Program-made: the position numbers and the translations under genes
The notes under the pieces: model-generated
Database searches by the model: none
The model's input: the letters and a program-made list of their open reading frames with translations, nothing else
Told to the model about the DNA's origin: nothing
Shown here: one piece after another, positions 2,525 through 30,999 of the stretch
Layout of the letters: every line of letters starts with the position of its first letter
Numbering within the stretch: position 1 is the first letter of the stretch
Origin: an uncultured Candidatus Saccharibacteria bacterium
Lineage (GTDB): Bacteria > Patescibacteriota > Saccharimonadia > CAZBQI01
DNA length: 64,000 nt
Direction: 5' to 3'
Assembly (NCBI GenBank): GCA_964494105.1
Contig: CAZBQI010000001.1
Location: 67,126-131,125 of the forward strand

Positions 2525-5467
2525 ATGCAAAAACGAAGGTGGCTAAACACCAAATTAGTGCTTGGCGTAGGAATTATATTTGTTTCTATATATACTTTTG
2601 CTACTCATTATTCACCGGTGCGCGCAGATCTAACGACTGGTTTACTTGTTCACTACACCTTTGAAAATACTAGTGGTAGCAATGTATACGATAGCTCAGG
2701 AAATAATCGAACTGCTTCACTAAGCGGTAATGCCACAATAAGTAGTGGCCTTTCAGGTAGCGGCGTTAACTTTGATGGAACTTCTGGCTATATGCAGGTG
2801 CCTCATCAGTTGGTGCCTGGCCAGCAGGCAGATTTTACCTACAGTTTTTTTGTTAAAGCCGATGCAGGTGGTGATAGCAATCAGTACTTAATGGGTCAAA
2901 GTAGTAGTGGCACGTTCAATAATGATTGCTTTAGCGTAGATTACGACAACGTAGGCAAGTCTTTAAAAGTACTAGCTACAAATAATGGTAATGGTGCTCA
3001 AATAACAACCTCGGCTGATCTTTCGAACTGGACGCATATTGCAGTCACAAATTCGCATACTTACGGTGAGTCGCAAGTATATGTCAATGGAGTTGCTACT
3101 TCAGGCCCAGAGGCGACATGTAGTCAGGCTCTCGCCAGTCAGTTTATGATTGGTAGAGCGCCTTACAGCGGTTATAACATGGAATTAGACGGGTCAATGG
3201 ACGAGATCCGGGTTTATAATCGCGTATTAAGCGCCGCCGAAATTTACCAGTTAGCTACCGAAGGCAATACGAATTCAGTTAACATAACTAGCCCAAGCAA
3301 TGGCAGTACTGTTAAGGGCTCTGTGAATCTTACTGCTAGTACGAGCGGTAGCCCTGCAATTGCATCGGTTAAGTATTATGCCAATGGAAGTGCACTTAGC
3401 ACGGCACTAACAACAGATCCCTATACATATACTTGGGATCTTAGTGCTGTCGAGCAAGGAGAGTATTTGCTGGTGGCTGTTGCTACCGATGTAAATGGGG
3501 TTACTGTGCCATCACAAGCCGTATTAGTAACGGTCGACAACGACCCAACAATAGCCATGCAAAGCTCCAAGAGTATACAGAAAACATCGAACAGGATTGC
3601 TTGGATAACTAGTGAGCCCACCACAGCGCGCGTGGATTATGGGTTAACAAGTTCATATGGTTCACAGACTACTCTTGATACTTCACTAAGTTATTATCAC
3701 GAGCAAACTCTGTCTAATTTAACGCCTGGTACAACTTATCATTACCGTGTCACATCCGTGGATTCTAATGATAATAGTGTTAGTTCTAGCGACTCGACCT
3801 TTACTACAATTAGTGATGCCACAGGTAATGAGTGGCATGTTACAACGAGTGGAACGTCTGGTGGAAATGGCTCAGTTAGTAACCCGTGGGATTTAGCGAC
3901 GGCTTTAGCGCAACCAGTTGCTGTTCAGCCAGGTGACACAATTTGGCTACATGGGGGGAACTATAGTGGAAACTACTCCAGCACGTTAACTGGTTCTGCC
4001 ACAGCGCCAATAGTTGTGCGTAACTACAACGATGAAAGAGTGATTATAGATGGTGGAGGTGGAAGCGGTTTTGCCCTGACTGTATATGGCTCGGATGCTT
4101 GGTACTGGGGTCTAGAAATTATGAGTTCTGGACTCGATAGGGATGTGTCTAACGCTGGATCGAGCCCGCCGGACCTAAACCACGCTTATGGATTTTATAT
4201 TTTTGGTGTTCGTACGCGGTTTATAAACAACATTGTTCACGACACGTCGCAGGGTTTTGGCTTTTGGACACCTGCAGTTGACTCAGAGCTTTATGGCAAT
4301 TTGGTTTACTACAACGGCTGGGAAGGTCCTGATCGTGGTCACGGACACGGTTTATATGTTCAAAATAATACCGGCATGAAGTACCTAGCTAATAATTTTG
4401 TATTTAGTAACTTTGGCTGGGGATTGCATGCTTACACTGAGGGAGGTCGCATAAATAACATTCAGACCGATGGCAATACTTTTTTTGAAAACGGTAAAAT
4501 CTCTGCCTTTGGATACACAACCAATCTGTTACATGGCGGGCTACAAATTGCTCAAAATCCAATGATTTTTAACAATGCAACCTATTACCCTCAAGCTGGA
4601 GGTGGTGGGGCGATAGGTCTTGGTTACAGTGCCGGATGCAATAGGCCAACGGTTGAGGGTAATTACTTTGCGGCAGAATCGGCCATTGATATTGGTGGTA
4701 GTTGTACTCATGAAACGTTTAAGAACAACTTATTTTATGGCAGTGTACCTGGTGGGCTTGAGACTAATTTCCCAGATAATACATATAAAACTAGCGCTCC
4801 TACTACTAATGCTACGCTACTGCGACCAAACCAATACGAGCCCAATAAAACAAATCTCACTATCTATAATTGGCAACAACTCAATAGTGTAGATGTGAAT
4901 CTATCCGCCGTCCTTACCGCTAATGATACGTACGAAATACGCGATGTTCAGAATTACTTTGGTGACCCAATTGCTAGTGGTACCTATGGGGGTAGTACAG
5001 TTTCTATTCCTATGAATTCAACGGCCGTTACAGCTGCTATTGGGTCTAATATACCGGTAGCACCAACTCATACCGCCAAAGAATTCGGCGCCTTTATGAT
5101 AATAAAGACCGGACACACCGACCCGGCTGATGAACCTCCAAGCGATGGTGCACCATCCTCAGGCGATGCCACTACAAATTCCACGAATAACACTAGTGGT
5201 TTTGGTAGAGTGTTGTCTATTATTAATACAGTTACACAATATGCTACAGGACAGTACTTCTTTGCCGATTCAGTTGTGGGCGTATCAGAACCAAACTCTA
5301 CTGACAGCACTGAAAAGAAAGTGGTAGAGGCCGGTCCTTTTGTTCAAGAAAATGCCTTAAAACAAATGTTCGCATCTCAGTGGCGTCCATTTTTAGCTAT
5401 TGGCGCTTTGACTCTAGCTGGAGGCTTGGTGGCAATTTATCTACGAAGGAAAACTAGAGTACATTAA
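2525..5467 (+). CDS. cell-surface LamG / Ig-like / FN3 / right-handed beta-helix protein with C-terminal TM anchor
   Basis: Start trimmed to ATG 2525 (MQKRRWLNTKLVLGVGIIF, signal-peptide-like). It has a LamG / concanavalin-like signature (DGSMDEIRVYNRVLSAAEIYQL), then Ig-like and FN3-like beta modules. A parallel beta-helix repeat region follows (NNIVHDTSQGFGFW, GNLVYYNGWEG, NNFVFSNFGWGLHAY). The C-terminus is a TM helix plus RRKTRVH. Confidence 0.7.
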   Translation: MQKRRWLNTKLVLGVGIIFVSIYTFATHYSPVRADLTTGLLVHYTFENTSGSNVYDSSGNNRTASLSGNATISSGLSGSGVNFDGTSGYMQVPHQLVPGQQADFTYSFFVKADAGGDSNQYLMGQSSSGTFNNDCFSVDYDNVGKSLKVLATNNGNGAQITTSADLSNWTHIAVTNSHTYGESQVYVNGVATSGPEATCSQALASQFMIGRAPYSGYNMELDGSMDEIRVYNRVLSAAEIYQLATEGNTNSVNITSPSNGSTVKGSVNLTASTSGSPAIASVKYYANGSALSTALTTDPYTYTWDLSAVEQGEYLLVAVATDVNGVTVPSQAVLVTVDNDPTIAMQSSKSIQKTSNRIAWITSEPTTARVDYGLTSSYGSQTTLDTSLSYYHEQTLSNLTPGTTYHYRVTSVDSNDNSVSSSDSTFTTISDATGNEWHVTTSGTSGGNGSVSNPWDLATALAQPVAVQPGDTIWLHGGNYSGNYSSTLTGSATAPIVVRNYNDERVIIDGGGGSGFALTVYGSDAWYWGLEIMSSGLDRDVSNAGSSPPDLNHAYGFYIFGVRTRFINNIVHDTSQGFGFWTPAVDSELYGNLVYYNGWEGPDRGHGHGLYVQNNTGMKYLANNFVFSNFGWGLHAYTEGGRINNIQTDGNTFFENGKISAFGYTTNLLHGGLQIAQNPMIFNNATYYPQAGGGGAIGLGYSAGCNRPTVEGNYFAAESAIDIGGSCTHETFKNNLFYGSVPGGLETNFPDNTYKTSAPTTNATLLRPNQYEPNKTNLTIYNWQQLNSVDVNLSAVLTANDTYEIRDVQNYFGDPIASGTYGGSTVSIPMNSTAVTAAIGSNIPVAPTHTAKEFGAFMIIKTGHTDPADEPPSDGAPSSGDATTNSTNNTSGFGRVLSIINTVTQYATGQYFFADSVVGVSEPNSTDSTEKKVVEAGPFVQENALKQMFASQWRPFLAIGALTLAGGLVAIYLRRKTRVH

Positions 5468-5557
5468 TTTGGCCGTTTGCTATATAAAGATAGTGCGCCC
5501 GGCTATAGATGCTTTTGCTTGCATAGTAGAGGTAGGTGCAATGTATAATATTGCCCA

Positions 5558-8500
5558 ATGGCAAATAAGAGGCACGGACTTAGTACTCGCATTACGCAAT
5601 ACTTTATTGAGCATTCCCGTATTACCGTAATCGCGCTCGCGACATTAGTAACTTTTGGTATCATTTCACTGCTAACCCTAAAGACCAGCGGTTTTCCTAG
5701 CCCAGAAGTTAACTTTGTAGTTATTAACACAGCTTATCCTGGTGCGTCTTCGTCGACAGTGCTGAAGGATGTGACAAAACCAATCGAATCTAGCATTAAG
5801 CAAGTTGACGGGGTTAAATCGTATTCTTCACAGAGTCTTGATAATTTCTCTATCGTTACAGTAAACATTGATGAATCGGCTAATGCAGATGCCGTTAAGG
5901 CTAAAATTGATTCCACCGTGCGCTCGGTAGCATTGCCGGAAACCGCTAAAGACCCAGAGGTAGCCACACCAAAAATATCTAACGACGAGTACAGTTACGC
6001 AATTGTTAGTAAGAATGGCGACATCCAAACGGCTTATCAGGCGACAGATATACTACGCAAGAAGCTCGAGCAAGATCCGGCGGTCATTGCGGTTAATGTG
6101 GCCGGCAAACTAAAACAAGAAGTAGTTGTTCAGTTGGATGCAGCCAAGCTAAACGCAGCCGGTCTTACACAAGAAGAAGTTAGCAATCAGTTAAAGACTT
6201 GGGGTCTAGCTATACCTGCAGCCGAAAACGCTAACTTTAGCGCCAAAAACTACAACATCGTGTTAACTCTGAGTGGTAGTAGCCTCGAGGAACTGCAGAA
6301 TCTCATGATTGCCAGCCAAAGTGCTCCGTTTGGGGTAAAGCTTTCGCAGGTTGCGGATGTTGGGACCATGTTTAGCTTAGAAGATCAAGCAGACGATGTA
6401 GTCGGTTTTCGTAGCAATGGTGAGGCTAATGTAGAAAAGTCGGTAATCTTTGGGATTGATGTAGATGACAACGCCAACCTAAGCAAGTATGACCCCAAAC
6501 TGCAAGATACTCTAACAAAATATTTCGATCCGGATGCGGCCTCGCATGCAGAGCTAACGCCAGCTGAGCGCGAGCTTTTTGACCAAGTTGAATTAGTTGA
6601 TGTGTATAACACCAACACCGATAATCAGCGTCAGATTCAGGAAGTTTTGGCCGGTTTAGCTGGCGAGAAGTGGGGAATACCGGTTATTGGCTGGATTGGC
6701 TTCGCTTTTGGCGCTATTCAGTTGGTGTTTATTTTTATGATGATTCTGGTCAGTTGGCGAGCAGCCATCATCGCGGCAATTGCCATTCCGTTAAGTTTCT
6801 TTTTCTCGACGATTACGTTGCTGCTAACGGGTAACGACTTAAACACCTTAACGCTGTTTTCACTGGTGTTGGTGATTGGCTTAGTGGTAGACCCGGCCAT
6901 TGTGGTATTAGAGGTTATTCAACGCTACATAGATAAGGGCGAAAAAGGTAAGCAGGCGGTGCTGTCGGCAATTGATGATATTGGCTACGGATTATTTATA
7001 GCGGTTCTAACGTCAATTCTGGTGTTCATTCCATTTGGGGTTGTATCAGGTATTTTTGGTGCCATCATTGCCTATATTCCCCTCACTATTATTCCGGCTT
7101 TAATTGGTTCCTACATAGTGCCGCTAATCTTTCTGGCCTGGTTTGGTAGCAAGATTCTAAAGCGCCGACCAGGCAAGTCGCAAGATGAAGAAAAAAACTT
7201 GTGGCGTAGCGCTCGCTGGATGATCAAAACTAATCGTCGTTTACTAAATCTCGGAGTTTTGCCGCGAATTGGTATTATCATTGTTTCGCTTGTCTTGCCG
7301 TTTGTTGTAGCTGGTGTCTATTTGGGAAGTGGCCAAGTCAAAATGGTACAGTTTTCGCAACCCGAAGACGGTGAGTTTTTGCAGATGGTGGTGGCTAAGT
7401 ATCCACAAGCCTCTGCTATTACTACCGAGGCTAATGCCAAGCAACTGCTAAGCGAAATCATGAAAAACCCGAACGTGGAGTATGTTGCGCCAATCTATAG
7501 CCAAGGTCCCACAAACGTTAGCTACTTCATTAAGCTTAAGGACCCTAGTGAGCGCAAAGGCAATACGGCCAGTGAAATTGCCGATAATTTTAATCATGTT
7601 TTTGAAAATTCAAATGTAGATGATGTTTTCTTTGACGTTAATGTAAGCACGCTTAGTCCAGGGCCACCGAATGCAATATTCCCAATTAGCATTGGTATAA
7701 AAAGCCAAGACCTCAATATTCAATCCCAAGTAGCTGGTGATGTAACAAAGATACTCAATCAAATGTGCCATAGCGATAGTGGCTTTAGCGTAAATTCTAA
7801 TTGCTCAGATGAAAACAAAGTGGTTGTAAAAATAGATAATGGCCAAGGTGCTCAGGCCAATAAATTTATCGAAGTGCGGTTGGATCGGTCTAAACTATTG
7901 ATGAGTCCAGTTAACCCAATTGCTTTGCGTGAGCAGCTGGCAAGCGTATACCAGCTAAATAGTGGCGAGGAATTAGCTAAGCTCCAAAGTGGAAACGAAC
8001 AGCTGCCAATTATAATCGCGCAAAATAATCAGAAACCGGCGAGCATAAATCAGTTACAGGCAGTGCCAGTTTTGACACTAACTGGGCAGAGTGTGCCACT
8101 TGGTCAGATTGCGGATGTGCGCGAGGTGGAAAGCCCGGGCAGTATTCGACAAGTTGATGGCGAGGCAGTTGGTGTAGTTACGGCCAAAGTACAACCCGAA
8201 TTCTCCGATCAGCAAAATGCAGCACTAGTACAGCAAAAAGTAATTGATGAGTTCAAGAATAACTACAAAGGCAAATATCCTCAGGAATTAGTTGTAGAAG
8301 GCTACAGCGAGGGCGATGTTGCAAGTATTGCTAAAAGTTTTAGTGAGCTAGGCATAGCGCTGCTGCTGGCGATTGTGCTTACGTACTTGTTGTTGGTGCT
8401 GTTCTTCGACAGCCTGAGCATGCCGTTGGTTATCCTGTTTGCCATTCCGTTAACATTTCTTGGCATTTTCCCGGGCCTGGCTTACCTGGCAGGTGGTCAG

Positions 8501-24372: not shown

Positions 24373-26106
24373 ATGGATGCTGTTGAGGAAATCAAGTCAC
24401 GCTTGAGTGTAGACGAAGTAGTTGGTAGCTATATACAGCTAAAACCTGCCGGGGCAAATTTGCGTGGGTTGTGTCCTTTTCATAACGAAAAAACGCCTAG
24501 TTTTATGGTTAGCCCCGAAAAAGGTATATGGCATTGCTTTGGCTGTGGCGAAGGCGGTGATATGTTTACTTTTGTCGAGAAAATGGAAGGCCTAGACTTT
24601 AAGGCTGTACTAGAAAAGCTAGCGATTAAAGCCGGGGTAACTATAGAGGCTTCGACTCCGATGGCAGCCAAGCACGCTAAGCAAAAAGAGCGCTTAATGA
24701 TGGCGCTAGAACTAGCTACAAAATACTTTCAGCGAGGATTGGTAAAAAGTAAAACAGCCCAAAACTACATTATTCGTATTCGCGGGTTTAATAAGTCTAC
24801 TGTAGAGACATTTCGACTAGGCTATAGTCCGGATTCTCAGTCCGGCCTGAGCACGCAGTTAATAAAGAACGGCTTTAGTGAAAGTGAACTTATTCAAGCG
24901 GGCTTAGCGCGCAAGCGGGGCAATGGATTGCAAGATATTTTTCGGGGGCGAATGATGGTGCCTTTTATGGACGCACAAGCTCGCACCATTGGCTTTACCG
25001 GTAGGCACATCGCTGACGATGCATTCGGGCCCAAATACCTAAATACGCCGGCTACGGCACTGTTCGATAAGAGTCGGTTTATCTTCGGATTGTCGGTTGC
25101 TCGCGAATACATTCGCGATAAGGATGAAGTAGTGGTAAGCGAAGGCAACCTGGATGTACTTACTTCATTTCAGGCGGGTATAAAAAACGTTGTGGCCAGT
25201 AGCGGAACGGCTCTGACTATTGCCCAGTTAAAAACGCTTTCTCGCATTACAAAAAATGTAAAACTGGCTTTCGACCAAGACAAGGCTGGTTTATCGGCTA
25301 CCGAACGAGCTATTCCGTTGGCCCAAGATGCCGGCGTCACGTTGTCGATTGTAGATCTAAGTGGGGCGAAAGATCCCGATGAACTTATTCATCAAAGCCC
25401 AAGAATTTGGGAAAAAGCTATCGCCGAGGCACCCTATATTATGGATTGGTTGCTAGATAATTTAGCGAGCAAGTATTCCATCACGACGGCTACCGGGAAA
25501 AAACAAGTCAGCGACTCCGCTACAGCCGCGATTGCGAAGTTAACAGATAGCGTAGAACAAGATCACTATGTCAAAAAACTAGCTAAGTTGTTGCAGGTTT
25601 CATCGGATTCAATCTGGCAAAAGCTAGAAAAACTATTGCCAATTTCAACGTCTCAAAATAAAAAAGCAAAGTTATCGACAAAGCCAAAGGTGCGCCCGGA
25701 AAGCCAAACGGTTGAAGAGGCATTGCTGGCGATTAATTTGATGTTTCCGGATAGTCGAACTAGTCTAGACGAGCTGACCGCCGAACATTTTAGCTCCCAA
25801 GAGCGCCAGACAATTTTCGAGGCACTGCGTGAACTAGGATCACAAACCATAGAAAATGACATGCCTAAGTCTTTGCGAGCTTACGACAACTATGTTAAAA
25901 TACTACTGTTACGTGCCGAAGAAGAATATCGTGATTGGGCAGCTCTAGATCGTCGTATTGAGGCATTTAGTTTAAGCCAACGACTCGGCGTGCTATATAT
26001 CAAACACCTTAAACAAAAAATAACCAATGAAATTCACAAGGCTGAAGGTCAAGGTGATAGCAGTCGTCGCGACAAATTACTACAGCAATTTCGCGACTTG
26101 AATTAA
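24373..26106 (+). CDS. dnaG: DNA primase
   Basis: CHC2 zinc finger (CPFHNEKTPSF...HCFGCGEGGD) and a TOPRIM region (EGNLDVLT). Confidence 0.9.
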   Translation: MDAVEEIKSRLSVDEVVGSYIQLKPAGANLRGLCPFHNEKTPSFMVSPEKGIWHCFGCGEGGDMFTFVEKMEGLDFKAVLEKLAIKAGVTIEASTPMAAKHAKQKERLMMALELATKYFQRGLVKSKTAQNYIIRIRGFNKSTVETFRLGYSPDSQSGLSTQLIKNGFSESELIQAGLARKRGNGLQDIFRGRMMVPFMDAQARTIGFTGRHIADDAFGPKYLNTPATALFDKSRFIFGLSVAREYIRDKDEVVVSEGNLDVLTSFQAGIKNVVASSGTALTIAQLKTLSRITKNVKLAFDQDKAGLSATERAIPLAQDAGVTLSIVDLSGAKDPDELIHQSPRIWEKAIAEAPYIMDWLLDNLASKYSITTATGKKQVSDSATAAIAKLTDSVEQDHYVKKLAKLLQVSSDSIWQKLEKLLPISTSQNKKAKLSTKPKVRPESQTVEEALLAINLMFPDSRTSLDELTAEHFSSQERQTIFEALRELGSQTIENDMPKSLRAYDNYVKILLLRAEEEYRDWAALDRRIEAFSLSQRLGVLYIKHLKQKITNEIHKAEGQGDSSRRDKLLQQFRDLN

Positions 26107-26131: not shown

Positions 26132-27247
26132 GTGCCAAGGAAACCAGCAGCTAAAACAGCTAAAGCAGAAGACAAAGAAGACCTAACCCCCGAAGGTATT
26201 GCCGAAACATTACTAAAGAAAGGCGTAGCCCAGGGCTTTATTGACTACACCGAAATCGCCAAAGCTTTGCCTGATGACGAAGAAAACTTAGAAGCACTCG
26301 ATTCCTTACATGGAAATTTGCTTGAAAAGAATGTGGAAATTATCAATCAAAAGGGCGGCCCATGGGAAGATGATGACGAGGACGAACCCGAAGAAGACGA
26401 CAAATACTTAGATGATATTGCCGATGACTCCGTGCGATTATATTTGCGTGAAATTGGTAAAATTCCCCTGCTAAATGCCGAGGAAGAAATAAAGCTTGCG
26501 AATAAAGTTAAGCGTGGTGACAAGCGCGCCAAAGACGCCATGGCCGAAGCTAACATGCGGCTCGTTGTATCGATTGCCAAGCGCTACGTTGGTCGCGGGC
26601 TGGATCTTTTAGACCTTATTCAAGAGGGCAACACTGGGCTCTTGCGAGCTGTAGAAAAGTTCGACCCTACCAAGGGCTTTAAATTTAGTACCTATGCTAC
26701 CTGGTGGATTCGCCAGGCTATTACCCGTGCCATTGCCGACCAGGCACGCACCATTCGTATCCCAGTGCACATGGTAGAGACTATAAACAAACTACTCCGG
26801 AACCAACGGCGCATGACCCAAGAACTTGGTCGTGAACCAACCAACGAAGAGCTAGCCAAAGAAATGGAAATGGAGGTCGAAAAAGTCGACCACATTATGA
26901 AGATCAAACAAGATATTAGCTCACTCGATGCGCCAGTACGCGATGACGAAGAAGATTCCAAGCTTGGAGACTTTATCGAAGACGAAGACAGTGACAGCCC
27001 TGAGGAGTCGGCTACGCAACAGCTTCTAAAAGAGCACGTAAATGAAATGCTCGATATTCTAACGCCACGCGAACAAAAAATTTTGCGCATGCGTTTTGGC
27101 TTAGATGATGGCCGTACGCACACCTTGGAAGAAGTTGGCCAAGAATTTGGTGTTACCCGTGAACGCATCCGGCAAATTGAGGCTAAAGCTCTGACGAAAC
27201 TACGCAAAAACCGCGACTCTAAGGCTCTCCGCGACTATTTGAAGTAG
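26132..27247 (+). CDS. rpoD: RNA polymerase sigma-70 factor
   Basis: Acidic region 1. Region 2.4 ([27 protein letters not shown]). Region 4 ([22 protein letters not shown]). Confidence 0.9.
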
Positions 27248-27276
27248 TTGACAAAGCATAAACATTACCGTATAGT
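27248..27276 (+). promoter_or_regulatory. near-consensus sigma70 promoter TTGACA-17-TATAGT
   Basis: TTGACA at 27248-27253, a 17-nt spacer, and TATAGT at 27271-27276, immediately after the rpoD stop. Confidence 0.5.
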
Positions 27277-27316
27277 AAATCCTTATGTGTAATTCACACT
27301 CAGCAGTTTCAGACAC

Positions 27317-27432
27317 AAACCGCCACAGCAACGACTTTGGTTTCTATTTTTATGCTTTTACAAAGGGGCGGTTTAGTCGTTAAATAGATTTATTTTTAAT
27401 ACACACTAACCGCCCCCGAAGGGCGGTTTTCT
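27317..27432 (+). promoter_or_regulatory. leader with mutually exclusive hairpins (attenuator or riboswitch-like expression platform)
   Basis: ggggcggttt (27365-27374) can pair with aaaccgcc (27317-27324). Alternatively it can pair with aaccgcccc (27408-27416), which is the 5' half of the terminator hairpin. Confidence 0.35.
27408..27432 (+). terminator. rho-independent terminator
   Basis: Stem aaccgccc, loop ccgaa, stem gggcggtt, then a ttttct tract. Confidence 0.6.
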
Positions 27433-27461
27433 AATGCAAAATTTTTATAAAGGAGATAACA

Positions 27462-28565
27462 ATGAACGAAGTAGATATAGCAGTAAGAATGGAAAATTTA
27501 ATGTCACATCAGTTGGGACGAGGGGGTCAGCCACTTGATCTTGATATTCAAAGGGTAGAGGGCGGCTGGAGTGCGGTAGAAGGAATACGGCTAGGACCTG
27601 ATTTGGAAGTGAGTCTTATGCGTGGGCCCCTAGAAATACCCCATGACTGGATACAAATTGGCACTGATTTAGTAGGGGCTTGGTCTGATTGGGCAATAAC
27701 TCAGGAATCAACTTGGATTGGCAAGAACCATGGTGTGGCATCGCCAATTATGAGGATAGACGGTACACTAGCCATGCAACCAGATAACACTATTGGCCTA
27801 GTGCCATACGAAGTAGAAGTTCGACCGTCTGGCTTGGGAATTGCTGCAGCCATAAGCCCAAAACTAAGATCCAAACTAGAAGCAGTAAGGAGCAGTTGGC
27901 CAGATGTAGTTACAAACGCAGCTGTTGTGGTAGACGATGGTGGTATTAGGCTTGATGATCATTTATGGCACCATGGCCGAGAAGAATCATTAGAGGACGC
28001 CACACATTCAGGCCAGTTGTTATTAGTAAGAAACAACAGTAATGGCAGTCCAGATCACCTAGCGCATTTAAGTGAACGTGCCATTGCTCCTATTACTAGT
28101 GATGGGCTAAAAACTCATGCTGCTACTTTAGGTATGGCAACGCTCGTTTCAAGTGTAGAAGAGCTAGACGGTTGGATGGACTTAATGCAAACTACAGGCA
28201 CTGTAATTAAGCCGGTTAAAGGCGCATATGCTCAGGGCGTAAGCATACATTCTAATGCACCAAAGAAAGAGCGACCTCGTGGTGTAGTAACATCTGGGCG
28301 ACTACTTCGCGATGCAGCCGAGCTAATTGGTCAAGACGGTTCTGTTTTGGTACAGCCGTTAGTCCCTCCTTTGGCCGGGGAAATAGGCCCCGACTCTTGT
28401 AAAATCTTACGATTATTTTGGGCAAATGATCTAGCGGGTGGCGGATGGGTTCCTTTGGGTGGAGTAGCGGTAACGCGTGACAATATTCGTGTACATGGAA
28501 CCTCGGATTCAGTTACTCAAGCGGTAGAAATTGTTGATGCACCAGCTCTTTCTGGTGTGTCTTAA
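27462..28565 (+). CDS. hypothetical protein with atypical composition (possible ATP-grasp-like C-terminal region)
   Basis: 367 aa. Strong SD (AAGGAGATAACA ATG). The protein is Trp/Arg/Gly-rich and Lys-poor, unlike its neighbours, and the local GC looks higher. No motif can be assigned confidently. Confidence 0.5.
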   Translation: MNEVDIAVRMENLMSHQLGRGGQPLDLDIQRVEGGWSAVEGIRLGPDLEVSLMRGPLEIPHDWIQIGTDLVGAWSDWAITQESTWIGKNHGVASPIMRIDGTLAMQPDNTIGLVPYEVEVRPSGLGIAAAISPKLRSKLEAVRSSWPDVVTNAAVVVDDGGIRLDDHLWHHGREESLEDATHSGQLLLVRNNSNGSPDHLAHLSERAIAPITSDGLKTHAATLGMATLVSSVEELDGWMDLMQTTGTVIKPVKGAYAQGVSIHSNAPKKERPRGVVTSGRLLRDAAELIGQDGSVLVQPLVPPLAGEIGPDSCKILRLFWANDLAGGGWVPLGGVAVTRDNIRVHGTSDSVTQAVEIVDAPALSGVS

Positions 28566-28617
28566 CAGAACCTTTGATATTTAGCTTATGCTATAATTTG
28601 GGGAGATATTATAAGGG

Positions 28618-30999
28618 GTGAAAGTGCCCATACTAACACAAAAACATCATAGTCTGCATCACGCGAAAACAAGGCGTCTCGAGCTAGTCTTAATCACATT
28701 GCTAATTGCTACACTAATTATTGGTTTTGTATCATTCAATTTTTACTCGCAGAACCAATCAGCCACAAGTGAATCGGTGCGACTAGCAAAAGAAGAACTT
28801 CAGATTGGGCAAGCCAAAAATGCTCAACAAACGATTAAATCTAAGCTTGGATTCTCGTTGTCTTACAACAAAGATATGTTTAATGTGACTGCTACCGAAT
28901 TTAGTGGTGAAGAGCCGAAAGACTATAATGATTCCCAAACTGCGGTAACTCGTAACTATGCAATTGTAGATATTTATCGACCTATCAACAGCGAGAATGA
29001 CGGGGTAGCTAAGTCATTTGATAGTTCAACTTTCGAAATCATAACTGATCGGACAAAAGAATTCTTTACTCAGAAACAGCTGGAACGCGGTCCGTTTTTA
29101 ACAGACCTCCAAGTAACGGAAGCCCGGTATAGGCCAGTAACAACCGAGGACGTTATTTATACTGAACTTAAGCGCGAGAAAGTAAATGTAGGTGACATTA
29201 ATTATTTGAAGGTTGAATATAGCGAGCAAAATCGCCGGTTCAAGCCAATTAACGGCGAAGAACCGAATAAAACCATTATTTATTACACCGTGCAAAATAA
29301 TCGACCATACGCGATAAAGATGCGTAGTCTGAATTCAGATTCAGCTAATTTGCCTTACTTTGAAACAGTTCTAAAATCAATAGAATACTCTTCACCTGCG
29401 GAAGACGCGCAATTCACATTGAACGATACGACTACTCAAAAACACAAACCAAAACTCACCTGGCTATTGGTAGAGGGTGTGGATGCTGCCGGTGAAAATA
29501 AAAGCGGCATCGATACCGAAACCATTGAAGTAGTAGCCAAAAACACTCCGGCGGTTGTTAGGGTTAATACGGGCTATTGCACAGAGCCGACTGTTAGTTA
29601 CAAAGGAAAGAATGCTCAATTACCCCGTGGATGCGTGTTTGGCCACGGTAGTGGTTTCTTTATTTCCGGGGATGGATATTTGGGTACCAATGGACATGTT
29701 GTAAGGCTTAGTCCGGACGATGCAGTTGCTGGCGCCATAGTGCTTGGTAACGAAAAACTCATCACTGAAGCTCTAAGGTTTTATTACTCGGTTATTGGCG
29801 CTTCTCCAGCGAGCGTCGCCCGTCTATTACCCGAAAGCTTACAAGTAATTCTAACGGACCCCCAAGAAGCTGCAGATTTCGCCAAAACGTTAATGGTGGC
29901 TCAGTTTGGAGCGAAGAACGAGTATTCCGAATATGCATTGCAGCTTGGCAAAACTCCCGTAGCTGTAAATAAACAAGCGATTATTGGTGGCACAGCAAGC
30001 GCTAGTCAGGAAATGTTTGGGTACGACGAAAAAACAGTCAAAGCGCAGTTAAAAGGTTTAAATTTTAACCCCGATGATTTACGTTCACCAACGGGTGAAT
30101 TCAGTGCTTCGGATGTAGCCATACTGAAAGCTAATGGTAATAATTTCCCCACCACTATACTTGGTGAGATTGATGGGCTGGTAAGCGGTGCAAGCATTAC
30201 AGTAATTGGTTTTCCCAGTATTGCCGAAAGCATTAGCGATCAGTTCGCACCGGCAAAAGCCACCGCCACCAAAGGCATAGTTAGTGCAGTGCGAGACGAC
30301 CGCGGAAATGGTAAGAAAATTATTCAATCCGACGTTACAATTAGCGAAGGTAACAGCGGTGGACCAGCCTATGATAATGCCGGTAAGGTAATTGGCCTTG
30401 CTACTTATACACTGAAGGATCCGGATGGAGCTGGCCGAGTTAGCTTAATGCGTGACATCGCCGACCTGAAAGAGCTGTTGTCTAAAGAGGGAATAAAAAC
30501 AGGTTCAATTAGCAAAACCCAAGAAGAATGGTCCAAAGGGCTAGAGGACTTTTTAGGGGCCAAGTACTCTAAAGCCATTAAGCATTTCGATGAAGTGCTT
30601 TTAGAATATCCGCCTCATGTTCTGGCTCAGGAATACATCGATTTAGCTCAAAAAAAGAAGGCCAATGGCGAGGAAGCCAGTGACCCGATTGCAAATACTG
30701 TGAGTTTTTCTCTATTTATACTATTGCTGTCAGCTGCAGTTGTAGTATTCGTTAAGGTGCGCTCACATCGCAAGAATTTACCACCAACAAATAGTTCAAA
30801 TGCGTCGGGCGTATCATCGTCATCAGCACAATCAACGCCTCCAACAACTACTCAACCGAATCAAACTATTGCTCAGACGCCAAGTCAGTCAATCGTAGCA
30901 CCAAAGGCTGCGCCCACTAGCTCTTCTGTCGTTGCTACACAAGCGCATCAAGCAGGAGGAGTATATTATCCCGCTGTTGACGAGACAGCCAATAAGTAA
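28618..30999 (+). CDS. membrane-anchored trypsin-like (S1 / HtrA-like) serine protease with a large N-terminal domain and Ser/Thr/Pro/Gln-rich C-terminal tail
   Basis: N-terminal signal-anchor TM. The catalytic His is in GHGSGFFISGDGYLGTNGHVV, and the catalytic Ser region is GNSGGPAYDNAGKVIGL. A second TM helix near the C-terminus is followed by a low-complexity tail of about 90 aa. GTG start. Confidence 0.7.
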   Translation: MKVPILTQKHHSLHHAKTRRLELVLITLLIATLIIGFVSFNFYSQNQSATSESVRLAKEELQIGQAKNAQQTIKSKLGFSLSYNKDMFNVTATEFSGEEPKDYNDSQTAVTRNYAIVDIYRPINSENDGVAKSFDSSTFEIITDRTKEFFTQKQLERGPFLTDLQVTEARYRPVTTEDVIYTELKREKVNVGDINYLKVEYSEQNRRFKPINGEEPNKTIIYYTVQNNRPYAIKMRSLNSDSANLPYFETVLKSIEYSSPAEDAQFTLNDTTTQKHKPKLTWLLVEGVDAAGENKSGIDTETIEVVAKNTPAVVRVNTGYCTEPTVSYKGKNAQLPRGCVFGHGSGFFISGDGYLGTNGHVVRLSPDDAVAGAIVLGNEKLITEALRFYYSVIGASPASVARLLPESLQVILTDPQEAADFAKTLMVAQFGAKNEYSEYALQLGKTPVAVNKQAIIGGTASASQEMFGYDEKTVKAQLKGLNFNPDDLRSPTGEFSASDVAILKANGNNFPTTILGEIDGLVSGASITVIGFPSIAESISDQFAPAKATATKGIVSAVRDDRGNGKKIIQSDVTISEGNSGGPAYDNAGKVIGLATYTLKDPDGAGRVSLMRDIADLKELLSKEGIKTGSISKTQEEWSKGLEDFLGAKYSKAIKHFDEVLLEYPPHVLAQEYIDLAQKKKANGEEASDPIANTVSFSLFILLLSAAVVVFVKVRSHRKNLPPTNSSNASGVSSSSAQSTPPTTTQPNQTIAQTPSQSIVAPKAAPTSSSVVATQAHQAGGVYYPAVDETANK

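Follow-up and report, generated by a model that had tools for sequence, protein, structure and literature searches.

We analysed a 64,000-nucleotide (nt) stretch of DNA from an uncultured Candidatus Saccharibacteria bacterium (contig CAZBQI010000001.1, positions 67,126 to 131,125; hereafter the window), in which a 214-nt spacer separates rpoD from an open reading frame (ORF) of 367 amino acids (aa) which is predicted to encode an ATP-grasp protein. The spacer contains a promoter and a leader which we interpret, from sequence comparison and folding predictions, as a ribosome-mediated leader-peptide transcription attenuator of the pheL/trpL type, which would control the ATP-grasp gene and use the ribosome as its sensor (probability roughly 0.55). 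It is probable, on the same kind of evidence, that the leader of this gene contains a conserved conditional terminator which acts in cis. The features on which this reading rests are as follows.

27245-27247, + strand: rpoD stop codon, TAG
27248-27276, + strand: sigma-70-type promoter adjoining the rpoD stop codon, with TTGACA at 27248-27253, a 17-nt spacer and TATAGT at 27271-27276
27285-27383, + strand: putative ORF for a leader peptide, 32 codons followed by TAA (27381-27383), MCNSHSAVSDTNRHSNDFGFYFYAFTKGRFSR, which runs through segment A, the aromatic run and segment B
27286-27298, + strand: weak 5' hairpin UGUG-UAAUU-CACA, which overlaps the leader start codon; -2.4 to -3.0 kcal/mol
27317-27324, + strand: segment A, AAACCGCC; partner of B (anti-antiterminator) or of D
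27336-27359, + strand: aromatic codon run TTT GGT TTC TAT TTT TAT GCT TTT (F18 G F Y F Y A F25), the proposed regulatory codons
27365-27376, + strand: segment B, GGGGCGGTTTAG, which is GGGGCGGTTT plus AG; partner of C (antiterminator) or of A
27406-27416, + strand: segment C, CTAACCGCCCC, which is CT plus AACCGCCCC; terminator 5' arm or antiterminator 3' arm
27421-27429, + strand: segment D, GGGCGGTTT, which is GGGCGGTT plus T and is followed by TTCT; 3' arm of the intrinsic terminator
27427-27432, + strand: U-tract TTTTCT, at the end of segment D
27449-27464, + strand: Shine-Dalgarno (SD) sequence AAAGGAGA at 27449-27456, a 5-nt spacer and the start codon ATG 27462 of the ATP-grasp gene
27462-28565, + strand: putative regulated gene, encoding an ATP-grasp protein of 367 aa which resembles glutathione synthetase and glutathionylspermidine synthetase

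In the proposed mechanism, transcription would start at or beside the A of ATG 27285, driven by the near-consensus promoter. Segment D runs into the U-tract, and any helix which includes D should act as an intrinsic terminator. With no ribosome on the leader, the RNA would fold either as A:B + C:D or as A:D + B:C; D would be paired either way and transcription would stop at ~27432. A ribosome which had reached TAA 27381 would cover B, C:D would form and transcription would again stop. When charged tRNA-Phe or tRNA-Tyr is scarce, the ribosome would stall in the Phe/Tyr run with a codon from F20 to Y23 in its A site, separating A from the downstream RNA while B stays free. B:C would then form and D would be left without a partner, so that RNA polymerase would read through into the ATP-grasp gene. 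We infer the transcription start, the translation of the ORF, the stalling and the identity of the amino acid sensed.

Promoter and alternative folds of the leader

A near-consensus promoter had been placed directly after the rpoD stop codon in a preliminary description of the window, and it was indeed found there, with 11 of 12 consensus positions. It is the sole sigma-70 match of at least 11/12 on either strand of the 64 kb; as ~1.2 such matches would be expected by chance in this length, the match has no significance taken by itself. Two close relatives, L081 and L088, have the same -35 hexamer and 17-nt spacing, with TATTGT as the -10 hexamer. The leader driven from this promoter is ~178 nt long, and the strong SD and ATG 27462 noted earlier follow it as described. 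No terminator was found between rpoD and the promoter, and there was no second promoter scoring at least 9/12 between the terminator and ATG 27462, so that expression of the ATP-grasp gene would require read-through of C:D. ARAGORN detected neither tRNA nor tmRNA genes in the window, and no Rfam family reached its gathering threshold anywhere in it.

In the whole 64 kb there are three occurrences of the octamer AACCGCCC or its complement, all of them within 63 nt (27366-27428). The predicted folding energy of the leader is -38.5 kcal/mol (z = -3.1), lower than that of any of 200 shuffled sequences, and the best upstream partners of C and D outscore 500 of 500 dinucleotide shuffles. As duplexes, B:C reaches -18.4 kcal/mol (0/500 shuffles) and C:D -15.5 kcal/mol, and A is the best upstream partner of D at -13.5 kcal/mol (0/500 shuffles); D is equally complementary to A and to C. 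As isolated hairpins, A:B, B:C and C:D have energies of -11.9, -19.7 and -13.7 kcal/mol respectively. The C:D hairpin consists of 8 base pairs (bp) closed by the loop CCGAA, while B:C consists of 9 bp plus a further 3 bp. C:D with UUUUCU lies 32 nt before ATG 27462 and has the form of an intrinsic terminator, and it is accompanied by a competing antiterminator and an upstream competitor (pairings 1:2, 2:3 and 3:4 when the segments are numbered in order). The U-tract is short in the window (UUUUCU), with U6 in L081 and U7 in L088.

The minimum free energy structure of the window leader is the nested A:D + B:C fold (-38.5 kcal/mol), and the tandem A:B + C:D fold has -34.1 kcal/mol. Across the three near-identical homologues these two global folds lie 1.3-4.9 kcal/mol apart and are thus near isoenergetic, and the predicted equilibrium flips between them: 99% B:C in the window, 75-97% C:D in L081 and a mixture in L088. 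No one structure is therefore strongly favoured irrespective of context. The preliminary description had reasoned that A:B pairing lets the terminator form and that B:C pairing blocks it. The competing pairings stand, but the statement that B:C blocks the terminator is incomplete, since D can also pair with A. Because D pairs with either A or C, A must also be taken out of play before D is free, which a ribosome would do naturally.

Conservation of the leader in close and distant relatives

The close syntenic set comprised the window, L081 (found via the downstream protein) and L088 (found via the rpoD protein cluster). The rpoD of both relatives falls in the window's 90%-identity cluster, that of L081 being 99% identical. 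Among the three genomes, divergence is 47-63% at the fourfold-degenerate sites of rpoD and the downstream protein has 77% identity; positions 27283-27432 differ by only 3-8% (92-97% identity), and the leader is the most conserved stretch in 6.6 kb when the window is compared with L081 and L088. Across the three genomes, segments A to D differ at one position only, an A-to-G change in A which turns an A-U pair into G-U; the arms being invariant, no covariation could be obtained from these genomes. The SD AAAGGAGA and the ATG are conserved in L081 and L088, and the gap from terminator to gene consists of 18-20 variable nt plus the SD. Judging by this comparison, the leader 27283-27432 is under strong purifying selection.

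The element was present in all three close genomes which carry the ATP-grasp gene (window, L081 and L088). Both the element and the 367-aa ORF were absent from L083-L087 (5/5), whose rpoD is 84-96% identical to the window's; this includes L086 and L087, whose rpoD belongs to the window's 90% cluster and which yet have neither. By this distribution, the element travels with the ATP-grasp gene and not with rpoD, and the promoter, leader and ORF are one accessory cassette. The ORF had previously been called foreign-looking, which holds for its presence and absence among relatives and not for its composition, as the guanine-cytosine (GC) content of the downstream ORF is 0.455-0.475 vs 0.46-0.48 in rpoD.

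Two other readings, neither of which we consider probable, can be weighed against this distribution. It could be that nothing is regulated, with C:D serving as the rpoD terminator or a leaky insulator, the promoter constitutive, and A and B the leftovers of a duplicated terminator arm. The arms do resemble each other in a duplication-like manner (A is like C and B is like D), and with no terminator before the promoter the rpoD transcripts must either end at C:D or read through it. This is nevertheless very improbable, as no C:D-like terminator was found after rpoD in the relatives which have no cassette, it would be counterproductive to place a terminator between a promoter and the one gene served by it, A and B are invariant at a neutral divergence close to saturation, and the four-segment design recurs in different sequence and in unrelated genomic contexts (see below). 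We regard as likewise very improbable a stand-alone small RNA (sRNA) gene of ~150 nt which would adopt the A:D + B:C fold and act in trans or with the ATP-grasp protein, the gene itself being expressed by leakage. In four lineages the element directly precedes an ATP-grasp homologue, and it is missing where the gene is missing; only 18-20 variable nt and the SD separate the terminator from the gene with no promoter among them, the conserved B:C antiterminator would be needless in a plain sRNA, and a search of the window revealed neither a paralogue nor a target-like match. The sRNA reading does account for a strong promoter, a structured and highly conserved RNA and an end at an intrinsic terminator, and a non-homologous promoter-leader-terminator unit is also found before a GNAT gene in L085.

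The gene order in the window is dnaG (24373-26106), rpoD (26132-27247), the 214-nt spacer, the 367-aa ORF (27462-28565) and, 3' of it, a trypsin-like membrane protease gene (28618-30999). The best matches of the rpoD product were from Candidatus Saccharibacteria metagenome-assembled genomes, at no more than 72% identity. A conserved extended -10 promoter, TGCTATAAT at 28589-28597, belongs to the protease gene itself, as does the SD TAAGGGGTG (window, L081, L087 and L088). Homology between the window and L087 resumes at this protease promoter, which marks the right-hand boundary of a variable slot after rpoD. In the rpoD-protease slot of L087 (5117-5557), an ORF of ~94 aa which is sigma-70 region-4 or helix-turn-helix-like replaces the leader and the ATP-grasp gene. 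This slot looks like a hot spot of cassette exchange.

The unit in L085 (5228-5409, minus strand) consists of a near-consensus promoter, TTGACA-17-TATGAT (11/12), followed by a ~105-nt leader, a strong terminator with ACCCCTCTTC / GAGAGGGGT-type arms and a T-run, and then by an SD and a GNAT acetyltransferase gene. It is non-homologous to the window leader, and it lies in a divergent intergenic region, so its terminator cannot serve an upstream gene. Terminator-containing leaders may be common in this clade.

More distant members of the ATP-grasp family were found in L146, L147 and L148, which come from AT-rich organisms and whose ATP-grasp proteins are 25-32% identical to that of the window. 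Their leaders differ from the window leader in sequence but share its A/B/C/D layout; CCTCC/GGAGG in L147, for instance, stands in place of CCGCC/GGCGG in the window. The arms and the leader ORFs considered in the next section are as follows.

L147, arms A/B/C/D: ATCCTCCC / GGGAGGTTTAG / CTAAACCTCCC / GGGAGGAT + T5
L146, arms A/B/C/D: TTCGACC / GCCGGTTTTGGTTTG / CAAACCAAAATCGGCC / GGTCGAT + T6
L148, arms A/B/C/D: AAAACTG...ACCTC (split A) / GAGGCCAGTTTT / TTAAACTGACCTC / GAGGTCAGTTTT
L147, putative leader ORF: ATG with a GAGAGGA SD, MRRKREKLNLNIWVLFILPFGGRFRVNSG, 29 aa
L146, putative leader ORF: GTG after AGGTG, VNLNQTKINLFFFYIWIRPQAGFGLSRISSR, 31 aa
L148, putative leader ORF: TTG with no SD, LKYVINNKTAWFFYFYTSPQEASFRCRSKNNMR, 33 aa

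In each of the four lineages, B:C (B being the best upstream partner of the terminator 5' arm) beats 497-500 of 500 shuffles, and it is stronger than C:D in three of the four. Covariation was counted on hand-extracted 8-nt cores, the B arms having been misaligned in a MAFFT alignment of six leaders. For the four-lineage cores, pairing was 92.5% in the nested structure (equalled by 0-2 of 500 shuffles) and 90% in the tandem structure (0/500 shuffles), and each structure had 7 compensatory pairs; the hand-chosen register inflates these percentages, while the differences between lineages are unbiased. Compensatory changes were seen in all four pairings. The segments are thus invariant in close relatives and change in a compensatory manner in distant ones, and the proposals that B pairs with A or with C and that C:D with the U-tract forms an intrinsic terminator agree with the coordinates, the energies, the conservation and the compensatory changes alike. 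The sequences between the arms were neither alignable nor conserved across the four lineages, and no common aptamer core was found in them. In L147, a second GC-rich hairpin, GGGAAGGGGGTAAACCCTCTTCC at 400-432, lies between the attenuator terminator and the ATP-grasp SD.

The covariation also bears on a DNA-level element, in which the repeats would be operator half-sites for a transcription factor or the recombination or insertion scar of a mobile cassette. Palindromic repeats and a cassette which is present or absent among close relatives could be explained in this manner. As the repeats change but keep Watson-Crick or G-U complementarity along with the T-run, which points to RNA structure and not to a motif bound by protein, and as they lie 40-150 nt downstream of the promoter with no recombinase nearby, we consider such an element extremely improbable. 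An integron attC site or operator was rejected on the same RNA-type covariation and the U-tract.

The putative leader ORF and the predicted effect of ribosome position

The putative leader ORF is intact in L081 and L088, where all five Phe codons are kept and the changes are confined to N-terminal residues and Y21D. A variable N-terminus with kept Phe codons is the pattern expected of a leader peptide whose own product would have no function. Equivalent ORFs of 29-33 codons were found in L146, L147 and L148, in the frame which reads the TTT of B as Phe, and in each of the four lineages the stop codon precedes C by 24-27 nt. Segment A lies at codons 17-19 in L146 and L147, and in L148 the second half of the split A (ACCTCC) occupies the same codons. 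The fraction of shuffled sequences with such an ORF in the B frame was 0.025-0.10 per lineage; the product is 1.4e-5, on which a factor of ~3 should be allowed for the post hoc choice of frame. The other two frames have no early start codons.

The effect of translation was predicted in a scan of ribosome positions along the ORF, in which the ribosome covered P-site -12 to +15 and folding was allowed only in the downstream RNA. D was paired with a probability of 0.7-1.0 at nearly all positions, and of ~1.0 with the ribosome at the stop codon or with no ribosome. In the window, L081 and L088, D was unpaired only with F20-Y23 in the A site (paired probability 0.03-0.31); in a footprint-dependent variant, the permissive codons of the window type were Y21-F25. 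The permissive A-site codons were L15-I17 in L147 (0.15-0.19) and I15-W16 in L146 (0.06-0.20). The outcome of the scan was robust for leading-edge offsets from +12 to +18. The four-way complementarity makes sense in this light, because D finds a partner in C or A unless a ribosome separates A while B holds C. The leader thus contains, in silico, a clustered-codon ORF which overlaps segments 1 and 2 and in which stalling would favour the antiterminator. In addition, GCUUUU at 27354-27359 can pair with AAGGGC at 27419-27424 (the loop of C:D and the 5' half of D); this third, weak partner of D is part of the RNAalifold consensus and narrows the range of positions predicted to be permissive.

No SD precedes ATG 27285, so its translation would need a leaderless or near-leaderless 5' AUG. 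Transcription starts preferentially at a purine which is preceded by a pyrimidine and lies 6-10 nt after the -10 element. ATG 27285 lies 8 nt past the -10 hexamer, and its A is the ninth base and the sole purine at positions 6-10. From this spacing, a leaderless 5' AUG at 27285 is plausible.

The main rival to the attenuator is a translation-independent RNA switch, in which a ligand or factor would bind the conserved stretch 27346-27387, which surrounds B, or the stretch between A and B, and shift the balance between B:C and C:D. The ~150 nt which are near-invariant, third codon positions and loops included, the leader ORF with no SD and the bistable energetics would all be expected of such a switch, and the covariation backs the helices whatever the sensor. 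We nevertheless think it unlikely, though the least so of the alternatives. The non-arm sequence is not conserved across the four lineages whereas the length, frame and stop of the ORF are, and because D pairs with A when C is taken, a ligand acting on A:B vs B:C would not obviously free D. There was also no match to any of 4227 Rfam families, which agrees with the earlier impression that the leader fits no known riboswitch consensus. A small aptamer, a protein-binding site or a leader-peptide-free attenuator had been envisaged as the sensor in the preliminary description; the ORF conserved in four lineages, with aromatic codons at the positions which would free the antiterminator, argues against these and for the ribosome.

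Several results weigh against the ribosome-mediated attenuator and limit our confidence in it. With regard to coding, the 9 substitutions in the ORF among the three close genomes fall 3/3/3 by codon position and give no coding signal; third positions are as conserved as the others and the constraint therefore looks RNA-level. The T-rich run yields aromatic or hydrophobic codons in any frame, and the other frames are likewise open across the GC-rich arms. With regard to initiation, ATG 27285 has no SD and its AUG is covered by the weak hairpin of -2.4 to -3.0 kcal/mol, and the L148 ORF has a TTG start only, again with no SD, and hence no convincing start codon. L148 is also the outlier in the predictions, with an antiterminator weaker than its terminator and a scan which gave only a weak dip (0.76) and no clear permissive range. 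Masked equilibrium folding which allows pairs to span the ribosome did not give a clean result for the window type. The covariation rests on only four lineages and hand-picked cores, the family members L082 and L145 show no comparable leader, and we found no account of attenuation in Saccharibacteria or other Patescibacteria in the literature.

Known RNA families were compared with the leader and rejected as its identity. A search of the leader region and L146-L148 in Rfam E-value mode gave nothing above threshold. Phe_leader was the sole cis-regulatory leader family among the weak sub-threshold matches and appeared twice, in the window and in L147; at 19.0 bits (E = 2.2) and 29 bits respectively, compared with a gathering score of 55, membership of RF01859 was rejected. 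A riboswitch or T-box was rejected as there is no conserved ligand- or tRNA-binding core and no Rfam match. RNAs like 6S, signal recognition particle RNA, tmRNA or tRNA were rejected for want of an Rfam or ARAGORN match and because the element is absent from close relatives; moreover, the leader is predicted to be an asymmetric nested hairpin and not a rod with a central bubble.

An nhmmer search of the window and all fetched loci for further copies gave only L081 and L088. The B-C-D arm pattern was found at 52 metagenome loci, all unrelated, and at 4 loci in a viral scan, also unrelated. A profile search for additional close ATP-grasp relatives gave none that were new, and tblastn against plasmids gave no match. 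Among soil metagenome loci, L090, L091, L093, L097-L100, L102, L103, L107, L108, L125, L130, L132, L134 and L137 carry a repeated element unrelated to the window leader: GTCAGAACCGCCTGCGGTAGCGGGCGGTT, ~50 variable nt and CAACCGCCCGCTACCGCGGGCGGTTCTGAC, which are two copies of one hairpin around a variable spacer.

The putative regulated gene and comparison with known attenuators

The 367-aa protein had no match in Pfam, NCBIfam or PADLOC. A full HMMER search gave 365 representative clusters of proteins of ~300 aa. The AlphaFold2 model built on a 72-sequence alignment had a mean predicted local distance difference test score (pLDDT) of 91.8 and a predicted template modelling score of 0.91; with a 5-sequence alignment the pLDDT was 29. 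Foldseek matched the model to 8fbz, 3kal, 1m0w, 2hgs, 2io8 and 6jil at E values of 1e-8 to 1e-4, and the closest structures were eukaryotic-type glutathione synthetases, glutathionylspermidine synthetase and DcsG, with PurT and Ddl also among the matches (E values of 1e-8 to 1e-3). Judged from this model, the downstream protein has the ATP-grasp fold.

The ATP-grasp gene is followed by an M20 peptidase gene in L146 (1742-2842), L147 (1458-2558) and L148 (3501-4601), and by a C26 glutamine amidotransferase (GATase) gene in L082 (2174-2869). This suggests that the ATP-grasp and peptidase or GATase genes make up a conserved module of two genes which acts on an amide or peptide bond. In L148, a Trp_repressor-family (PF01371) gene at 5419-5748 lies ~800 nt downstream of the ATP-grasp/M20 pair. 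A link of the ATP-grasp gene to Phe or Tyr is conjecture.

We give about even odds to a more general reading, in which these leaders constitute an undescribed family of leader-peptide attenuators which sense Phe or aromatic amino acids, are found in Saccharibacteria as well as in other uncultured bacteria rich in AT, and possibly have leaderless 5' AUGs. They would switch the ATP-grasp gene on, together with an M20 peptidase gene in other lineages, when charging of tRNA-Phe or tRNA-Tyr is low. Segment 1 of this family would be complementary to both 2 and 4, and a terminator would form in every state but that of the stalled ribosome.

Saccharibacteria and other Patescibacteria have tiny genomes and few recognised regulators, and they are not known to synthesise amino acids. 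If the attenuator reading is true, Saccharibacteria monitor tRNA charging and couple transcription to translation, possibly on a leaderless message, and these amino-acid-auxotrophic episymbionts gain a direct read-out of their amino-acid supply. It would also tie an unannotated ATP-grasp family (~365 representative clusters, often beside an M20 peptidase) to the supply of Phe or Tyr, and this tie would be a testable lead to the substrate of the ATP-grasp protein and the function of the family. The leader is also a small, well-defined RNA motif which is absent from Rfam.

Of the closest known systems, the pheA and pheST leaders of E. coli (pheL and pheM; RF01859) share several features with the window leader: a short ORF which includes a stretch of Phe (and Tyr) codons, 1:2, 2:3 and 3:4 pairings which overlap, an intrinsic terminator just before the SD of the regulated gene, and an antiterminator which is favoured by a stalled ribosome, in silico in our case. 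The differences are that the ORF is twice as long (29-33 codons here vs 14-15), that the ORF of the window has no SD and its start may be leaderless, that segment 1 is also complementary to segment 4, that the host is Saccharibacteria-like, and that the target is an ATP-grasp ligase (in other lineages with an M20 peptidase) and not Phe biosynthesis or phenylalanyl-tRNA synthetase.

With trpL, the his, leu, thr and ilv leaders of Proteobacteria and the Lactococcus leu/phe leader motif, the leader has in common that translation would be coupled to the choice between terminator and antiterminator, and, as in trp-type leaders, the terminator would be the default when there is no translation ('superattenuation'). 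It differs from trp-type leaders in having no Rfam match, in its regulatory codons, taxon and target genes, and in that the regulatory codons of the window type lie between segments 1 and 2 and not inside segment 1.

Riboswitch and T-box expression platforms are similar in that exclusive helices decide the fate of an intrinsic terminator within a 5' leader of ~150-200 nt; unlike these, our leaders contain no conserved aptamer or specifier/T-box sequence, and the lineages share an ORF and not a ligand core. On balance, we incline somewhat towards the view that the leader, a motif missing from Rfam, is a pheL/trpL-type attenuator in an unexpected phylum and before an unexpected gene.

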